Source: a virus | Reading direction: 5' to 3' (one strand) | Length of the DNA stretch: 6,220 bases | Virus genome (UHGV): UHGV-0187156 | In this document: one piece after another, positions 1 to 6,211 of the stretch | Layout: each line of letters opens with the position of its first letter | Position numbering within the stretch: position 1 is the first letter of the stretch | Notes under the pieces: generated by a model | Told to the model about the DNA's origin: nothing | The model's database searches: none | What the model saw: the letters and a program-made list of their open reading frames with translations, nothing else | Made by a program: the position numbers and the translations under genes

Positions 1-261
1 ATGATTCGTATCGAGATTTTAAAATCAGATATTACAACACGTTCTTTTACTTCAAATGGAAAGGACGTAACTTTTTTTGAGCAAACAGCCTACATTCATC
101 TTGGTGATGATTATCCGGCTAAGTTTTCATTAACTCTGCAAAAAAACCAGCAGGCTTATGCACCCGGTGACTATACTGTACATCCTGGTTCTTTGCGTGT
201 CGGTAATTATGGTTCGCTTGAGTTTCAGCGAAATGTAATTTTAGTACCACTAAAACAATAA
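1..261 (+). CDS. V: ssDNA-binding protein (gene V protein family)
   Basis: 86-aa ORF. Recalled similarity to M13 g5p (MIKVEIK...QPAYAPGLYTVH...FGSL...LVPAK versus MIRIEIL...QQAYAPGDYTVH...YGSL...LVPLK here). First gene of the morphogenesis block. If circular, the AGGA at the window end sits 7 nt upstream of this ATG. Confidence 0.88.
   Translation: MIRIEILKSDITTRSFTSNGKDVTFFEQTAYIHLGDDYPAKFSLTLQKNQQAYAPGDYTVHPGSLRVGNYGSLEFQRNVILVPLKQ
63..75. repeat. degenerate motif copy GGACGTAACTTTT (right half-site intact)
   Basis: Inside gene V, encoding KDVTFF in the same frame as the other copies; the left arm diverges. Confidence 0.45.
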
Positions 262-730: not shown

Positions 731-1966
731 ATGACTACAAAAAAGTTACTTTTGCTCGGTTTATTACTTACCAGCTTTAGTGTTATGCCTTTTATTCAAT
801 TTGCCTATGTCGGAGAATCTTTAATCTCTGCTGGTCTTGGTCGTCTTTTTGCCTCCCGAGCTGCAACAGCTGCAACAGGTGAAGTCTTTACGAAATTACT
901 ACAAAGTACTGTTGCTTCCTCAAAGGCAATAATACAAAAGAACCTTTCAAATATTCCTTTAAAGTCAGCCTTAAGAACCGCTGGCGGTGGTACATTCCTT
1001 GCCGTTCTCGGTCAATCTGGAATCTCTATTTATGACTACTTCACAAACGAAAAAGTAACTTTTGACGGTAATCTAACTGATGAAAATTTAAAAGTAAGTC
1101 GTCCATCTGAAAACTCTTTAGGTGAACTTAAAGAATGGAACGGCACATTTATAGATCTTGTAACTGCTGAGGGAACCTCAGTTCGTGGATATCCGCAGCC
1201 ACCACTACTCAGGAAAGAAACATCAAGCAGATACGCTATTTATTCAGCAACGACTGATCCGAGACTTCAGGAGTGGATACAGAGCAGCAGTCCTACAATT
1301 TTCTCAAACTCCTACGTTCAACAGCCTGACGGTAAGGCGGTAAAGATGGATCTCTATCGTTACCAACGAACCTTCAAGACAGGTGAAACTGTAGACGTGC
1401 CGAAATTGTCGGATAAGGTGACTGGATCGGTTGCTGATGTCGTACCGAAGTCTAAGCTTGAAGAAACCGTACCGATTGATGTTCTTACGGATATGGTGAA
1501 CTCGATAACGCGAAACATTGAGGCTGATGCGACTTATGAGGGTGTATCTTTCCCTGATGTCTGGACTCGCGATCAGGTAGCAGCTGCTTTCCCTGGTGTC
1601 CGCTGGGTAGATTTAGTCAGGCCAATTGAAAAAGACATTCCTTCGATTCCGGTAATTAGCACACCTAATGCGGATGTTGTTCCTGACTGGGGAACTTCCC
1701 CAGATAATGGCGACCTTTCAGATCCTGAGGCGCCACCAATTTCCTCGATTATTCAGCCTTTCAAGATAATGCAGACTGATATAAATAACAGGCTTGGTTT
1801 TAATATTCCTGCTGGTGAATGTCCTGTGTTTACTGTGAACTTCTTCGGAAAAATAAAATCAGACAATACATTTTGTGAATTCATGAATAAGTACGCTGGC
1901 GTGCTTAGGGCAATTTTCTTAGCAATGTCATCAATTCTTGCTGTCCGTATTTTCTTAACTGCATAG
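731..1966 (+). CDS. III: minor coat / adsorption protein (pIII-like)
   Basis: 411 aa. N-terminal signal-peptide-like segment (MTTKKLLLLGLLLTSFSV), C-terminal hydrophobic anchor (AGVLRAIFLAMSSILAVRIFLTA), size and position match Ff gene III. N-terminal receptor-binding part not recognisably Ff-like, as expected for host-range domains. Confidence 0.75.
   Translation: MTTKKLLLLGLLLTSFSVMPFIQFAYVGESLISAGLGRLFASRAATAATGEVFTKLLQSTVASSKAIIQKNLSNIPLKSALRTAGGGTFLAVLGQSGISIYDYFTNEKVTFDGNLTDENLKVSRPSENSLGELKEWNGTFIDLVTAEGTSVRGYPQPPLLRKETSSRYAIYSATTDPRLQEWIQSSSPTIFSNSYVQQPDGKAVKMDLYRYQRTFKTGETVDVPKLSDKVTGSVADVVPKSKLEETVPIDVLTDMVNSITRNIEADATYEGVSFPDVWTRDQVAAAFPGVRWVDLVRPIEKDIPSIPVISTPNADVVPDWGTSPDNGDLSDPEAPPISSIIQPFKIMQTDINNRLGFNIPAGECPVFTVNFFGKIKSDNTFCEFMNKYAGVLRAIFLAMSSILAVRIFLTA
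741..753. repeat. dispersed motif copy AAAAGTTACTTTT (perfect)
   Basis: Exact 13-mer, 10 nt downstream of the gene III ATG (codons 4-8). Confidence 0.9.
1051..1063. repeat. dispersed motif copy AAAAGTAACTTTT (perfect; extended 19-nt identity with the 3211 copy)
   Basis: Exact 13-mer inside gene III, encoding NEKVTF in frame. AAACGAAAAAGTAACTTTT is shared with 3205-3223. Confidence 0.9.
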
Positions 1967-1973
1967 GTGATTT

Positions 1974-2261
1974 ATGTACGCTGTACTCTTATCTGCTTTA
2001 ACACTTATTGCTAAATTCTTCATTAAAGGCACTGTAATAAAATTCGTTTTTTTTTCAGCTCTTGCGTACTTCGTGATCGAAATGGTGCCTTACATAATCA
2101 CATTTTTTATGGGCGGAAATTATCTTGCTGGTGTATTTGATCAAATGCCGTCGGGTATTCTTTACTTTCTGAATGTGATTGATTTCAAGACATCCTTTCA
2201 AATCGTCCTGTCCGCTTATGTGGCGCGTTTTGTGGTAAGACGCTTACCGGTGGTGGGCTGA
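1974..2261 (+). CDS. VI: minor coat protein (pVI-like)
   Basis: 95-aa strongly hydrophobic protein directly after gene III. AGGTGA SD at 1965-1970 overlaps the gene III stop. Its stop overlaps the gene I start (TGATG), as in Ff. Confidence 0.72.
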   Translation: MYAVLLSALTLIAKFFIKGTVIKFVFFSALAYFVIEMVPYIITFFMGGNYLAGVFDQMPSGILYFLNVIDFKTSFQIVLSAYVARFVVRRLPVVG

Positions 2262-3241
2262 TGGCTATAAACCTCTATGTGGGCCTACAGGGCGCTGGTA
2301 AATCATACGAAAGTGTAAAATCCGTTGTCCTCCCAGCTCTTGCTCAGGGACAGCGTGTTGTATCTAATATTGAAGGTCTTGATTCTGAGAAGGTATACGC
2401 CTATGTAAAAAAAATATTTAAGGTAGATGAATCATCAATCGGCGAGCTTGTGTATGTAGAAGACGACCTCATAAAGCGAGATGATTTTTTTCCAACTGAG
2501 GATGGTGATTCACAATACGTAAAATACGGTGATCTGGTTGTAATTGATGAAGCGTGGAGATTTTTTGATAGTGAAAGAACTCTGTTACCTAATCACAAAC
2601 AATTTTTCGGTATGTTGCGCCATTATGGCTGTCAAATGGCTGTCATTAATCAAACAAACGGTTTATGCAAAAGTCTGCTCGGTAGAATACAGACAACCTA
2701 CAAAATGCACCGTGCGTTTTCTGTCGGTTTTAAAACAAGGTACTCAATAATTAGTTACAGCGGCTCTGAGATGCGAAAGCAAGATATTTACAAAACTCAG
2801 GCTTTTCTAAAATACAACCCTGAAATATTCAGTCTCTATAAATCAGAAAAGCAAAAAGCAGCTACAAAACTAGATAAGAGACAAAATATATGGTCGGTAT
2901 TCGGTTTGTTATTACTAACGATCGGCGTGCTGGCTGTCTCTGCTACTTTTCTTTTTAAAAAATTCTACGGTGTGACTCCTGAACGCTCAGTTCCTGCGTC
3001 ATCTACTCCTTTACATCAACAAGTACCAGTGCCTACTTCGAATTTTATAGATACAACACAAAAAGCAACTTCCTACAGATATGTAGGTTTCTATCAGAAA
3101 GATAATCAGCGTTTTGCTCTACTGAGGGATGAAAATCAACTTCTAGTAATCATCCCTTACTCAAGATGCACAAATGAAGGTCGCCGAACCTCTTGTGAGC
3201 ATGAAAACGAAAAAGTAACTTTTTATGGTGGTGTGAAATGA
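2261..3241 (+). CDS. I: assembly ATPase (pI / Zot-like)
   Basis: 326 aa. Walker A GLQGAGKS near the N-terminus, Walker B-like LVVIDEAW, single transmembrane segment IWSVFGLLLLTIGVLAVSATFLF, periplasmic C-terminal tail. Stop overlaps the gene IV start (ATGA). Architecture recalled from M13 pI. Confidence 0.88.
   Translation: MAINLYVGLQGAGKSYESVKSVVLPALAQGQRVVSNIEGLDSEKVYAYVKKIFKVDESSIGELVYVEDDLIKRDDFFPTEDGDSQYVKYGDLVVIDEAWRFFDSERTLLPNHKQFFGMLRHYGCQMAVINQTNGLCKSLLGRIQTTYKMHRAFSVGFKTRYSIISYSGSEMRKQDIYKTQAFLKYNPEIFSLYKSEKQKAATKLDKRQNIWSVFGLLLLTIGVLAVSATFLFKKFYGVTPERSVPASSTPLHQQVPVPTSNFIDTTQKATSYRYVGFYQKDNQRFALLRDENQLLVIIPYSRCTNEGRRTSCEHENEKVTFYGGVK
3211..3223. repeat. dispersed motif copy AAAAGTAACTTTT (perfect)
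   Basis: Exact 13-mer at the 3' end of gene I, encoding ENEKVTFYGG, ending 15 nt upstream of the gene IV ATG. Confidence 0.9.
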
Positions 3242-4452
3242 AAAAAATACTCTTAACTATGACTTTTCTCTTAAACTCCTTTTTCGTGAATGCAACGAAT
3301 ATTGACTTCTCGATAACGGATGCAGGCCTTAACGATGTGATAACCCTCGTATACTCGGACATCTTAAAAAAGCCGTTTATGTTAGATCCTGCAATAGTTG
3401 AGAAACCACAAAAAGTTACTTTTTACTTCACAAAAAATCAGGACTTCGAAAAAACTTTTTATTCCTACCTGAACAGCCTCGGTTACGAAGTGAAAACAAA
3501 ATCAGGTGTCGATTTCATCAGGATTGCTCCTGAGCGTGTTATGGCGCCTCCAAAAACATACGTATACGTTTACCAACCTTTTCACCGTACTGTTTCTTAT
3601 CTTTCAGACATCATTTCGAATTCATTACAAAACAACTTTTCAACTGTAACCGGGATTGGTGATGGGAACATGTCGCCCGGAACTGTAGCACCGGATAGCG
3701 CCGGGCAGCTGCTTAGCAGAACTGGCGATAGACTTGTATTTAATGGCACTCAAGCAAAAATAGAAGAGCTCAAAAAGCTACTAACAGAAATTGATGTACC
3801 TAGTCAGTCAGTAGAGATAACCGGGTATCTATACGAGGTGGCCACAAATAAGAAAAATGGATCAGGTATGCAGCTTGCTGCAAAACTACTTTCCGGAAAA
3901 TTCAAGATCGGCATGGGTACAACACGGGGTTACAGTAACTTCATCTCTCTTTCAACGGGTAGTGTCGATGCTCTCTATGAGCTGTTCTCAACTGATAACC
4001 GGTTCACGGTTGTATCTGCTCCACGTTTGACCGTTGATTCTGGCGAGAAAGCATCTTTTGCCGTTGGTGATGATGTGCCTGTACTCAATACAACAACAAT
4101 TACAGATGGAACTGTACAGCAGGGGGTTTCTTATCAAAGCGCTGGTGTTCTCTTCAATGTTTCTCCGGTTGTTATATCATCAAAAATAAGACTTAACTTC
4201 TCCCAAGAGCTTTCAAGTTTCGTTGAGACAACAACAGGCGTAAACGACTCACCAACCAAAACAAAACGCACAATTCAAAGCGTTGTAACTGTAGACAATG
4301 GCTCTATCATTGTTGTTGGTGGGTTAGCTTCAAGAAAGAAATCTGATAACAAAACGGGTCTCAGTTTTTTGCCTGATATTTTTGCGCAAAATTCAGACTC
4401 TGATGAGCATACTGATTTGATAGCTGTCATTCAGGTAAGAAAGCTGGGCTAG
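3238..4452 (+). CDS. IV: secretin (pIV-like outer-membrane export channel)
   Basis: 404 aa with N-terminal signal-like sequence. C-terminal region matches recalled M13 pIV secretin motifs (VVSAPRLTVDSGEKASFAVGDDVPV versus ILSVPRILTLSGQKGSISVGQNVPF; VVGGLASRKKSDNKTGLSFLPDI versus LLGGLTDYKNTSQDSGVPFLSKI). Confidence 0.88.
   Translation: MKKILLTMTFLLNSFFVNATNIDFSITDAGLNDVITLVYSDILKKPFMLDPAIVEKPQKVTFYFTKNQDFEKTFYSYLNSLGYEVKTKSGVDFIRIAPERVMAPPKTYVYVYQPFHRTVSYLSDIISNSLQNNFSTVTGIGDGNMSPGTVAPDSAGQLLSRTGDRLVFNGTQAKIEELKKLLTEIDVPSQSVEITGYLYEVATNKKNGSGMQLAAKLLSGKFKIGMGTTRGYSNFISLSTGSVDALYELFSTDNRFTVVSAPRLTVDSGEKASFAVGDDVPVLNTTTITDGTVQQGVSYQSAGVLFNVSPVVISSKIRLNFSQELSSFVETTTGVNDSPTKTKRTIQSVVTVDNGSIIVVGGLASRKKSDNKTGLSFLPDIFAQNSDSDEHTDLIAVIQVRKLG
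3411..3423. repeat. dispersed motif copy AAAAGTTACTTTT (perfect)
   Basis: Exact 13-mer inside gene IV, encoding QKVTFYF in frame. Confidence 0.9.
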
Positions 4453-4500
4453 CACGATGCCGGAGCGCCAGCGACGAAAGAGGGATAGACCAGCTTTCTT
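4437..4500. repeat. long imperfect hairpin spanning the gene IV stop (11-bp arms, about 42-nt interior)
   Basis: AAGAAAGCTGG at 4437-4447 is the reverse complement of CCAGCTTTCTT at 4490-4500. In Ff the packaging-signal hairpin lies immediately downstream of gene IV. Confidence 0.45.
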
Positions 4501-4519
4501 TCTCTCTCTCTTCTGTCAG

Positions 4520-4532
4520 AAAAGTTACTTTT
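4520..4532. repeat. dispersed motif copy AAAAGTTACTTTT (perfect, intergenic)
   Basis: Exact 13-mer in the IG, directly after the polypyrimidine tract and before the C-rich run. Confidence 0.9.
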
Positions 4533-4569
4533 CTTCCTCCCCCCGTTTTCGTTGCCTCTGTGTCAATCG

Positions 4570-4605
4570 CTTAATCGTGGGGGCCCCTTTGGGGTTCCGA
4601 TTAAG
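4570..4605. repeat. nested palindrome: 8-bp outer stem around GGGGGCCCC and CCCCTTTGGGG
   Basis: CTTAATCG (4570-4577) pairs with CGATTAAG (4598-4605). The interior holds two mutually exclusive GC palindromes, so alternative folds are possible. Confidence 0.5.
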
Positions 4606-4640
4606 TGATTTACACCACTCCCCTTTTCATACTTCCGCCT

Positions 4641-4672
4641 GGTCGTTGGGGAGGCATTTTTCCCCAACGACC
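4641..4672. repeat. perfect 12-bp stem hairpin with 8-nt loop
   Basis: GGTCGTTGGGGA (4641-4652) is the exact reverse complement of TCCCCAACGACC (4661-4672); loop GGCATTTT. Confidence 0.6.
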
Positions 4673-4697
4673 TGTTAAGCTGGTTTTGCCTTAAGTG

Positions 4698-4708
4698 CCG
4701 CGAAGCGG
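4698..4708. repeat. GNA-triloop mini-hairpin CCGC-GAA-GCGG containing GCGAAGC
   Basis: The heptamer GCGAAGC (4700-4706) is the classic exceptionally stable DNA mini-hairpin, here extended by flanking C:G pairs. Confidence 0.5.
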
Positions 4709-4792
4709 TTTGGGGTTCTAGTGACACCCAAACTTTGGTATGGGATCGCATACTTTTTCACACCCCGCACCGTCCGGAAGTTGACTTTCTAC

Positions 4793-4987
4793 CTAACTTT
4801 TTTTTTCGGCTAAACTGCTGAAATATGCCTCCGTACCGTCAAGGTCGCCGTTTTCCATCAGGTATAATGCAAGCTGAGTCCAGGTGATGCTTTTCTTGTA
4901 TGCGAAGCTAAGTTCAATTGCTTTTTGCTCTAGCCGTTTCTTAGTCGATAACGGCACCCGCATTGAGATAGTTTTTTTTGTATTCAT
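4793..4987 (-). CDS. hypothetical small DNA-binding protein, ribbon-helix-helix-like (candidate transcriptional regulator)
   Basis: 64 aa (MNTKKTISMRVPLSTKKRLEQKAIELSFAYKKSITWTQLALYLMENGDLDGTEAYFSSLAEKKS). Minus-strand context AGCAGGAGGATTC-ATG gives an AGGAGG SD 4 nt before the start. N-terminal basic strand (TISMRVP) followed by two predicted helices fits the Arc/MetJ/CopG ribbon-helix-helix layout. Divergent from gene II. The longer start at 5053 in the ORF track lacks an SD. Confidence 0.5.
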   Translation of the reverse strand: MNTKKTISMRVPLSTKKRLEQKAIELSFAYKKSITWTQLALYLMENGDLDGTEAYFSSLAEKKS

Positions 4988-5023
4988 GAATCCTCCTGCT
5001 CTTACTTTACAGCAGACTTGCAG

Positions 5024-5052
5024 TTGCATAAATAATAGAATATGTGTATACA
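5024..5052 (+). promoter_or_regulatory. candidate sigma70 promoter for gene II (TTGCAT, 17-bp spacer, TATACA)
   Basis: -35-like TTGCAT at 5024-5029 and -10-like TATACA at 5047-5052 with a 17-bp AT-rich spacer, about 40 nt upstream of the gene II ATG. The -10 overlaps the 8-bp palindrome TGTATACA (5045-5052). Sequence-only prediction. Confidence 0.35.
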
Positions 5053-5092
5053 TAGATACAGGGATTCAGGGATACGGGTAAGGTGCTAAATA

Positions 5093-6211
5093 ATGTACTT
5101 TTTTGATTGGCTAGACATCTCTCAGGATTTTGGAACGGATTTACCCATCAAGAGTGATTTAGTGTATCTGCGCCTCAATACAGTAACTGGTGAGCATGGG
5201 GCTGTGAATCAACCAACCATCCGCCATCAGGGCAGTTTTTGCGATCAGCTCATGATAAGCCTTAAGGGCTCAGAATTGCGCGTGTCCGGGAACCCGTCAC
5301 GCTGGGGTCGTCTTGATAATCTGTTTGGTCATGCCACAATTGATCAGTGTGTAGCTGTATATAACGGGGTGCTTCGGTCTATGGGGTTGCCTGAATTTAC
5401 CAAATGTACAAAAACACTTGTCGTACAGGGTGACAGTAACGAAAAAGTAACTTATACCAGCAATGGTGCGATGATAAGAGAAATTCACATCACCACGAAT
5501 ACGGCTGTTGGTCAGGGGAATGTGCTTGATTACATAAAGGCATTAAGCACTCAGAGATACAGAAACTCTACTCCCTATCTGTACCCTAATGGTCGCTCTG
5601 TTGATTGGCGCACCAAGTCAGGTAGTACAAGCCTTGTTTATCCGACCGTTTACGATAAAGCAAATAACCTTATTGATAAAAATTTAAATAAGATAATTAA
5701 GACTTTTGGCGAAAATTCGCAAGAGCATAAGTATTTAAAGAAACTAATTGAATATTGCCAAATCAACGGTGTAGTACGATTTGAGCAAAAGTTAAAAAAT
5801 GAATACCTTCGTAGAAACAATATGCGTTTCTGGGGTATTGCAAACTTTGATCACTTGGAAGTATTACAGAATCAATTCCTTGATATTGATCAGAAACTAA
5901 CGGTGACAGCCATGAACTTTGAAACTATCTCAGATCATCTTATTGCTGAAGGTATCGTAAACAATACAAAAGCCAGCATTACAACAGCTATGTATGCTTA
6001 TTTGTGGATGCAGGGTAAGGAATTTGATTTTTCAAAATCGTCAGTAAAAACGCATCGAGCACGCTTAAGAAAAATCGGTATTGATATTGCTATGCCTTGC
6101 AATATTTCCCAGTTCCAGCCAGTGGTGGTAAAAAATGTACGTCAAATCGAACGTCAGACATTAACCGCGCCAGCCTGGTATAAACAACCGCAATTCCTCA
6201 TGGCCGTCTAA
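5093..6211 (+). CDS. II: rolling-circle replication initiator (pII-like nicking endonuclease)
   Basis: 372 aa with AAGGTG SD 6 nt upstream. Recalled similarity to M13 pII (GVVRFEQKLKNEYLRR versus GLVRFEARIKTRYLKS). Positioned after the IG, as in Ff. Confidence 0.85.
   Translation: MYFFDWLDISQDFGTDLPIKSDLVYLRLNTVTGEHGAVNQPTIRHQGSFCDQLMISLKGSELRVSGNPSRWGRLDNLFGHATIDQCVAVYNGVLRSMGLPEFTKCTKTLVVQGDSNEKVTYTSNGAMIREIHITTNTAVGQGNVLDYIKALSTQRYRNSTPYLYPNGRSVDWRTKSGSTSLVYPTVYDKANNLIDKNLNKIIKTFGENSQEHKYLKKLIEYCQINGVVRFEQKLKNEYLRRNNMRFWGIANFDHLEVLQNQFLDIDQKLTVTAMNFETISDHLIAEGIVNNTKASITTAMYAYLWMQGKEFDFSKSSVKTHRARLRKIGIDIAMPCNISQFQPVVVKNVRQIERQTLTAPAWYKQPQFLMAV
5443..5455. repeat. dispersed motif copy AAAAGTAACTTAT (one mismatch)
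   Basis: Inside gene II, encoding SNEKVTYT. Shares the extended left flank AACGAAAAAGTAACTT with the 1051 and 3211 copies. Confidence 0.75.
5912..6211 (+). CDS. X: pX-like protein from an in-frame internal start within gene II
   Basis: In-frame ATG at 5912 preceded by GGTGA (5902-5906). Product begins MNFETISD, comparable to the MNIYDDSA start of M13 pX. Ff gene X is the C-terminal third of gene II translated independently. Confidence 0.45.
   Translation: MNFETISDHLIAEGIVNNTKASITTAMYAYLWMQGKEFDFSKSSVKTHRARLRKIGIDIAMPCNISQFQPVVVKNVRQIERQTLTAPAWYKQPQFLMAV

Follow-up and report, generated by a model that had tools for sequence, protein, structure and literature searches.

The 6,220-nucleotide (nt) virus genome UHGV-0187156 (hereafter the window) carries, on its minus strand between the secretin gene gIV and the gene for the replication initiator (Rep), a small open reading frame (ORF) of 64 amino acids (aa) that, judged by sequence comparison, is a genuine conserved gene. 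We propose that it encodes an RstR-like regulator with a predicted ribbon-helix-helix (RHH) fold, whose most probable role is to repress the Rep operon and itself from repeats in the control region that the two divergent genes share. The first-pass annotation of this DNA had described the 64-aa ORF, its AGGAGG Shine-Dalgarno sequence, the 105-bp spacer that separates it from Rep (start at 5093) and a run of nine adenines (A9) in its last codons, and all of these are borne out by the sequence (Table 1).

The small gene and its relatives

The ORF is intact in three further lineages, with the same position, start and Shine-Dalgarno sequence in each, at nucleotide identities to the window of 82% (L001/L002, together with a 6219-bp Citrobacter “plasmid”), 76% (L005-L008) and 76% (L009/L010). 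Synonymous sites are near saturation between these lineages in all genes, and codons 1-50 of the small ORF show a ratio of nonsynonymous to synonymous differences (pN/pS) of 0.15-0.25 (Fisher’s test, P = 3e-4 to 2e-6), indicating purifying selection; from codon 51 to the end, evolution is almost neutral. An 18-nt block around the Shine-Dalgarno sequence, GTATTCATGAATCCTCCT, is invariant in all four lineages. Since the ORF has stayed intact despite near-saturated synonymous divergence, with codons 1-50 under purifying selection, its presence is not a matter of chance, and the conservation in related phages that had been suggested as a check is found. The identical 64-aa protein recurs in 66 blocks of a public collection, comprising Salmonella contigs, gut metagenomes and sequencing runs. 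A metagenomic variant (P0002) differs from the window protein in its last residues only, at the A9 run, which is consistent with a change of homopolymer length at the neutral C-terminal end.

The ORF is short, lacks a Pfam match and has an almost neutral C-terminal tail, as might be expected of a spurious ORF that is a by-product of constraint on a DNA or RNA element in the intergenic region. That explanation is effectively excluded by purifying selection at the codon level, by the conserved Shine-Dalgarno sequence and ATG, by distant homologues that a search of 1.8 billion sequences recovered at E = 1e-7 and by a confident fold prediction; furthermore, the ORF on the opposite strand is broken in relatives. 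That overlapping plus-strand ORF (4884-5081) was itself rejected as a gene, having stops in L005 and L009, and an 86-aa extended reading of the small ORF with its start at 5053 was rejected as not being the conserved version.

With respect to protein families, the window protein matches PHROG 2503, a family of unknown function (E = 7e-8). Among 1.84 billion representative proteins, a profile built from the window clade alone picked out P0006, P0009, P0011, P0013, P0015, P0018, P0020 and P0021 (E = 1e-7 to 5e-4), and the widened profile gathers 162 proteins from Enterobacterales, Vibrio, Aeromonas, Pseudoalteromonas and Shewanella. Nearly all of them are labelled “hypothetical”, with a few called “CopG family transcriptional regulator”, “Relaxosome protein TraY” or “Repressor-like protein”. 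The profile search that the first-pass annotation had proposed thus yields PHROG 2503 and a wider family, without the hoped-for match to a curated RHH family: neither the window protein nor 14 family members match one in Pfam or NCBIfam.

Named relatives emerge through intermediates. The window protein alone gave chance matches only when searched by tblastn against phage records; with P0015 and the If1 ORF described below as queries, tblastn leads to the [quoted passage not shown] of CTXphi IB1617/IB1346 and of pre-CTX, to an “RstR-like putative transcriptional regulator” of Vibrio phage VAI1, and to hypothetical proteins of gut inoviruses (Dulem viruses, D_HF5_61) whose gI is the nearest to that of the window. 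The identity of the window protein to the small RstR alleles is about 17-20% in the alignment, the link being made through profiles. Circularity is removed by leave-out tests with hidden Markov models, in which the window protein reaches 50 bits with a profile that omits its own clade and environmental RstR reaches 77 bits with one that omits the RstR subgroup; these tests were given precedence over a weak direct alignment by hhalign of the five-sequence clade profile with environmental RstR (probability 21%). The family consensus also matches both termini of rstR-6, a 192-bp gene whose cloning primers (Table S2 of PMC11509585) encode MKKKYTSLRVS... and ...LIHKKTDLKR; the exact primer sequence was not found in the viral contigs searched. 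The same study reports, from lux assays, that every rstR allele tested, allele 6 included, represses the ig-2/rstA promoter that belongs to it (PMC11509585). Taken together, these comparisons place the window protein, at the level of sequence profiles, in the small RstR family (RstR-env/rstR-6 type, PHROG 2503), and the analogy to a CTXphi-type repressor drawn in the first-pass annotation becomes one of homology to the small alleles of CTXphi, pre-CTX and VAI1, which also sit divergently beside their replication gene.

This position is shared across the family. It is seen in lineages L001-L018 and, among the distant members (L020-L027), in all four whose surroundings were examined: each stands immediately upstream of an inovirus replication operon and reads away from it, with a G2P-type Rep in L023, L025 and L026 and a Rep_trans-type Rep in L021. 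Two of these relatives are integrated, L025 as a tandem-duplicated prophage in an 87-kb Escherichia coli contig and L023 flanked by chromosomal genes. The window Rep and CTXphi RstA are not similar, so that the regulators of this family are paired with differing replication proteins. In L025 (5251-6060) and L030 (3200-3406) we also observe that the regulator is followed by one or two more small ORFs of unknown function on the same strand.

An unannotated homologue of the family lies in the “major intergenic region” of phage If1 (NC_001954; 5122-5322, minus strand) with 27% identity to the window protein. Between it and Rep, If1 carries an IS200/IS605 insertion sequence (IS) with a Y1 transposase and a TnpB, the latter of the IS605 type and annotated merely as ORF348; a hairpin about 20-40 bp upstream of the ATG of the homologue looks like an IS end. 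As a separate observation, Rep in the If1 record is split over two frames, through a frameshift or an old sequencing error; the stretches of If1 (L019) noted for these various observations are 801-1004, 1070-2768 and 2998-4114. The homologue indicates that the small ORF is an ancestral feature of the If1-related group and no intrusion into an Ff genome; nor is it an oddity in such a genome, given that If1 is itself a classical, non-temperate phage.

Predicted fold, control region and proposed repression

The AlphaFold2 model of the monomer, built on a 70-sequence alignment, begins with an extended segment followed by helices at 13-30, 36-46 and 52-62, with a predicted local distance difference test (pLDDT) score of 83. 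RHH proteins fold solely as dimers, and we therefore modelled a single-chain dimer, in which a (G4S)5 linker connects two copies and the alignment is concatenated to match. In this model (core pLDDT >90; predicted template modeling score, 0.72) strands occur only at 6-12 and 95-101 and, being the sole strands, must pair together. The models thus show what defines the RHH superfamily, an N-terminal strand and two helices within about 45 residues that dimerize through antiparallel paired strands, and the strand is invariant within the window clade. The RHH pattern that had been read from the ORF by eye is therefore reproduced by the models, and RHH membership is well supported at the level of predicted fold. 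In structural comparison the protein comes closest to TraY of the F relaxosome, with TraM also among the matches, at sequence identities of 7-9% to TraY and Arc, and the match to TraY reflects the fold shared by a single-chain dimer model. A Foldseek search returned nothing significant, and searches of the protein and of family profiles against PDB sequences gave no match.

Several elements of the shared control region are invariant in the four lineages: the Shine-Dalgarno sequence and ATG of the small ORF, the block GTTGCATAAATAATA, the motif GTATACA and the frame of four 8-bp repeats. The block at 5023-5037 may hold overlapping promoter elements of the two divergent genes. At the candidate -10 element of the small ORF, the lineages have TAAAGT, TAGAGT or TACAGT, with T1, A2 and T6 kept in all. 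In If1 and the E. coli prophage L025, too, a GTATACA core precedes Rep. The 8-bp array, which TRF reports with period 8 and 2.6 copies, is kept in all lineages and has four clean copies in L005.

We consider it probable that the small ORF encodes an RstR-like RHH regulator that represses the Rep operon and its own gene from these repeats. Dimers would insert their paired N-terminal strands (residues 6-12) into successive major grooves at 5040-5079, with T6, S8 and R10 facing the DNA; the promoter and leader of Rep would overlap these repeats, and binding would reduce transcription of the operon and, via the shared 105-bp region, probably that of the small ORF too. The copy number of the double-stranded replicative form (RF) and the output of virions would thereby be held down, so that the cell could tolerate the infection over the long term much like a plasmid, and a second phage of this type that entered it would be repressed as well, which would amount to immunity.

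Several points weigh against this reading. A strict promoter and terminator scan of 4400-5200 was empty, with no consensus sigma-70 promoter, and a relaxed scan gave weak promoter candidates only. The assignment of the repeats as operator is a guess. The link to rstR-6 is built on primer-encoded termini rather than on a full sequence. If1 tolerates an IS insertion between the homologue and Rep, suggesting that tight coupling may be non-essential. Finally, the module is not hypervariable between lineages, unlike rstR/ig-2 of CTXphi, which fits copy control better than an immunity cassette.

As for life style, none of the 66 collection blocks that index the window protein has a contig longer than 10 kb, and all 24 contigs read are of 6.2-6.35 kb or shorter. 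A search of 5,426 complete E. coli genomes did not turn up the phage, a finished Citrobacter assembly contains a relative as a free 6219-bp replicon (“plasmid”), and the window contains neither a dif-like attachment site nor an integrase ORF. These observations do not place the window phage among integrating, CTXphi-like phages. The first-pass annotation had raised lysogeny-like control of replication; since only genome-sized circles are seen, without a dif-like site or an integrase, “lysogeny-like” is to be read as putative repression of an episome, and the part that implied integration falls away. With no integration step, such control would resemble classical lysogeny less than it would the regulation of copy number in an episome.

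A regulator of this kind could also act away from the phage promoter, as an orphan antitoxin-like or other small regulator of host genes that affects host physiology or the exclusion of other elements and has no role in phage replication. We regard this as highly improbable, since no toxin ORF is adjacent and the gene is strictly linked to Rep, in divergent orientation, throughout the family, which points to a role at the adjacent phage promoter.

Probable origin and dispersed palindromes

About 40 nt past the stop codon of the small ORF lies a hairpin (4707-4753) that is probably the plus-strand origin and Rep site (Table 1). Its stem shows compensatory changes between lineages (TTTGGG/CCCAAA versus TCCGGG/CCCGGA). 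The small gene thus lies between the probable origin and Rep, and its best structural match is TraY, with TraM appearing too, so the protein might be an origin accessory factor that binds near 4707-4753, bends the DNA and helps or modulates nicking by Rep, as TraY, TraM and NikA do for HUH relaxases. We judge this unlikely: the family accompanies two unrelated Rep families, which is more readily understood if the protein regulates at the promoter than if it is a cofactor specific to Rep, its relatives are named as repressors, one of them tested, and the conserved repeats are on the promoter side and not at the origin. The TraY match itself is ascribed to the fold shared by a single-chain dimer model.

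A different set of sites is provided by a 13-bp palindrome, present in the window in five exact copies and one copy with one mismatch versus 0.09 expected. Degenerate copies lie near 66-80 and 4777-4789, the latter just 3' of the stop of the small ORF, and L005 has an exact copy at the equivalent site (AAAAGTCACTTTT). The positions are kept across lineages despite saturated synonymous divergence, with a variable central base, and inside genes the palindrome forces the peptide (N)EKVTF into gIII, gI, gIV and Rep, although these proteins are unrelated. The motif is confined to this phage clade; phages of other family members were checked for dispersed palindromes of their own, as a possible link between such sites and the RHH family, and have none.

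These palindromes could be the main targets of the RHH protein in place of the Rep promoter, or be bound alongside it; the protein might then act as a genome-wide organizer of the double-stranded RF, through silencing, compaction or segregation, the last by centromere binding like that of ParG or omega. The excess and fixed positions of the copies would fit this, as would the pairing of a clade-restricted motif with an invariant RHH strand, the length of 13 bp, a size bound by some RHH proteins, and the L005 copy just 3' of the ORF. Yet the 105-bp control region has no copy, the phage is without a gene for a ParA-type partner, and the motif is absent from the phages of other family members, with a host protein an equally possible binder. 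We therefore give this explanation slightly less credence than an origin accessory role. All three of these alternatives, at the origin, at the palindromes and in the host, are less likely than repression of the Rep operon.

TABLE 1 Features of the window, with positions numbered over the whole stretch
Feature	Positions	Strand	Remarks
Small ORF, 64 aa, MNTKKTISMRVPLSTKKRLEQKAIELSFAYKKSITWTQLALYLMENGDLDGTEAYFSSLAEKKS	4793-4987	-	RstR-like protein, predicted RHH
Predicted elements of the small protein	residues 6-12, 13-30, 36-46, 52-62		Strand (TISMRVP), helix, helix, variable third helix
A9 homopolymer	4798-4806	-	Within last codons (E-K-K-S)
Shine-Dalgarno AGGAGG	4992-4997	-	4 nt before ATG at 4987
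Divergent control region, 105 bp	4988-5092		Between small ORF and Rep; 73-92% identity across lineages, no lower than genome average
Candidate -10 element TAAAGT of small ORF	5004-5009	-	Weak consensus match
Invariant block GTTGCATAAATAATA	5023-5037		Putative -35 TTGCAT (Rep); putative TATTAT or TTTATG, minus strand (small ORF)
Imperfect 18-bp palindrome ATATGTGTATACATAGAT	5040-5057		Centred on GTATAC; candidate operator; overlaps first 8-bp repeat
Four tandem 8-bp repeats ATACATAG ATACAGGG ATTCAGGG ATACGGGT	5048-5079	+	Reach Rep Shine-Dalgarno; candidate operator array
Rep, replication initiator, 372 aa	5093-6211	+	G2P_X_C / Phage_CRI, PHROG 702; presumed regulated target
Plus-strand origin candidate	4707-4753	+	Hairpin with invariant loop GTTCTAGTGACA, then invariant 19-mer TTGGTATGGGATCGCATAC
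13-bp palindrome, given as AAAAGTWACTTTT, AAAAGTNACTTTT or AAAAGTTACTTTT	741-753, 1051-1063, 3211-3223, 3411-3423, 4520-4532, 5443-5455
Hairpin, 18-bp stem	4560-4615		89-92% identity over 54-60 nt to Erwinia PEar phage intergenic region and 96 enterobacterial plasmids
gV	1-261		Followed by two small coat-type ORFs
gIII	731-1966		gVI next in order
gI/Zot	2261-3241
gIV secretin	3238-4452		Followed by intergenic region

Genome setting and known systems

The window is a complete circular inovirus genome: a 6347-nt contig from a human-gut metagenome is 100% identical to it, with a terminal overlap of 127 nt. No near-identical DNA was found in phage records beyond a 60-nt hairpin. This hairpin (4560-4615) resembles a shared primase-type single-strand initiation signal and is a probable minus-strand origin; in the one plasmid examined, of the IncFII type, the match lies between repA and a finO/proQ-family gene. 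The most divergent stretch between lineages is the C-terminal third of gI (2901-3100), at 59-65% nucleotide identity versus 75-85% elsewhere.

The first-pass annotation had spoken of an M13-like backbone, which is accurate for gene order but not for the sequences. The closest Rep is that of If1 (55% identity), and the nearest gI proteins are those of uncultured gut inoviruses (about 34% identity), the Ff phages not being named among the gI matches. Compared with the Ff group (M13/fd/f1), the window thus has a like gene order, sequences that are not Ff-like and a small gene in the region between gIV and Rep, and both the sequence distance and this gene argue against membership of that group.

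These findings suggest a name and a fold for a widespread inovirus family without a Pfam entry that is listed as “hypothetical”, and the models imply that the short RstR alleles of cholera-toxin phages may be RHH rather than helix-turn-helix proteins. The same switch would operate in non-integrating enterobacterial phages that occur as plasmid-like circles in Salmonella, Klebsiella, Citrobacter and the human gut. Should replication indeed be throttled by the protein, this would help to explain silent carriage and would provide a compact repressor-operator pair. In the literature searched, short RstR alleles as RHH proteins, the If1 homologue and such a switch in non-integrating enterobacterial inoviruses appear to be unrecorded. 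Current understanding is not overturned by this, as the gene belongs to a known, little-annotated type.

The closest known counterparts are the small RstR alleles (environmental RstR of CTXphi IB1617/IB1346 and of pre-CTX, rstR-6 and the RstR-like protein of VAI1), which are of the same family, about 60-67 aa long and in the same divergent position, although their partner RstA is unrelated to the window Rep. CTXphi also differs as a phage, since it integrates at dif and is without a secretin gene, whereas the window phage has gIV and is seen as an episome only. Canonical RstR (El Tor/classical, about 112 aa) is a helix-turn-helix protein. It and the other helix-turn-helix repressors of temperate inoviruses follow the same logic of a divergent immunity repressor beside rep; the fold differs, the window protein having no helix-turn-helix match and modelling as RHH, so that the two would be analogous and not homologous. 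TraY is a tandem RHH protein in one chain that acts at oriT, whereas the window protein has an extra, variable third helix.

Copy-number control of a filamentous phage has been proposed before, for ORF13 of the episomal Pseudomonas phage PMBT54 (PMC10534721). Small RHH repressors that control a rolling-circle or plasmid replication gene are likewise known from plasmids, as CopG (pMV158) and omega (pSM19035), with no sequence similarity detected to the window protein. The copG gene is co-transcribed with repB, whereas the small ORF of the window is on the strand opposite to Rep, so the resemblance to CopG would be functional only. Omega binds tandem 7-bp repeats, an arrangement comparable to the candidate 8-bp array that leads up to Rep in the window.
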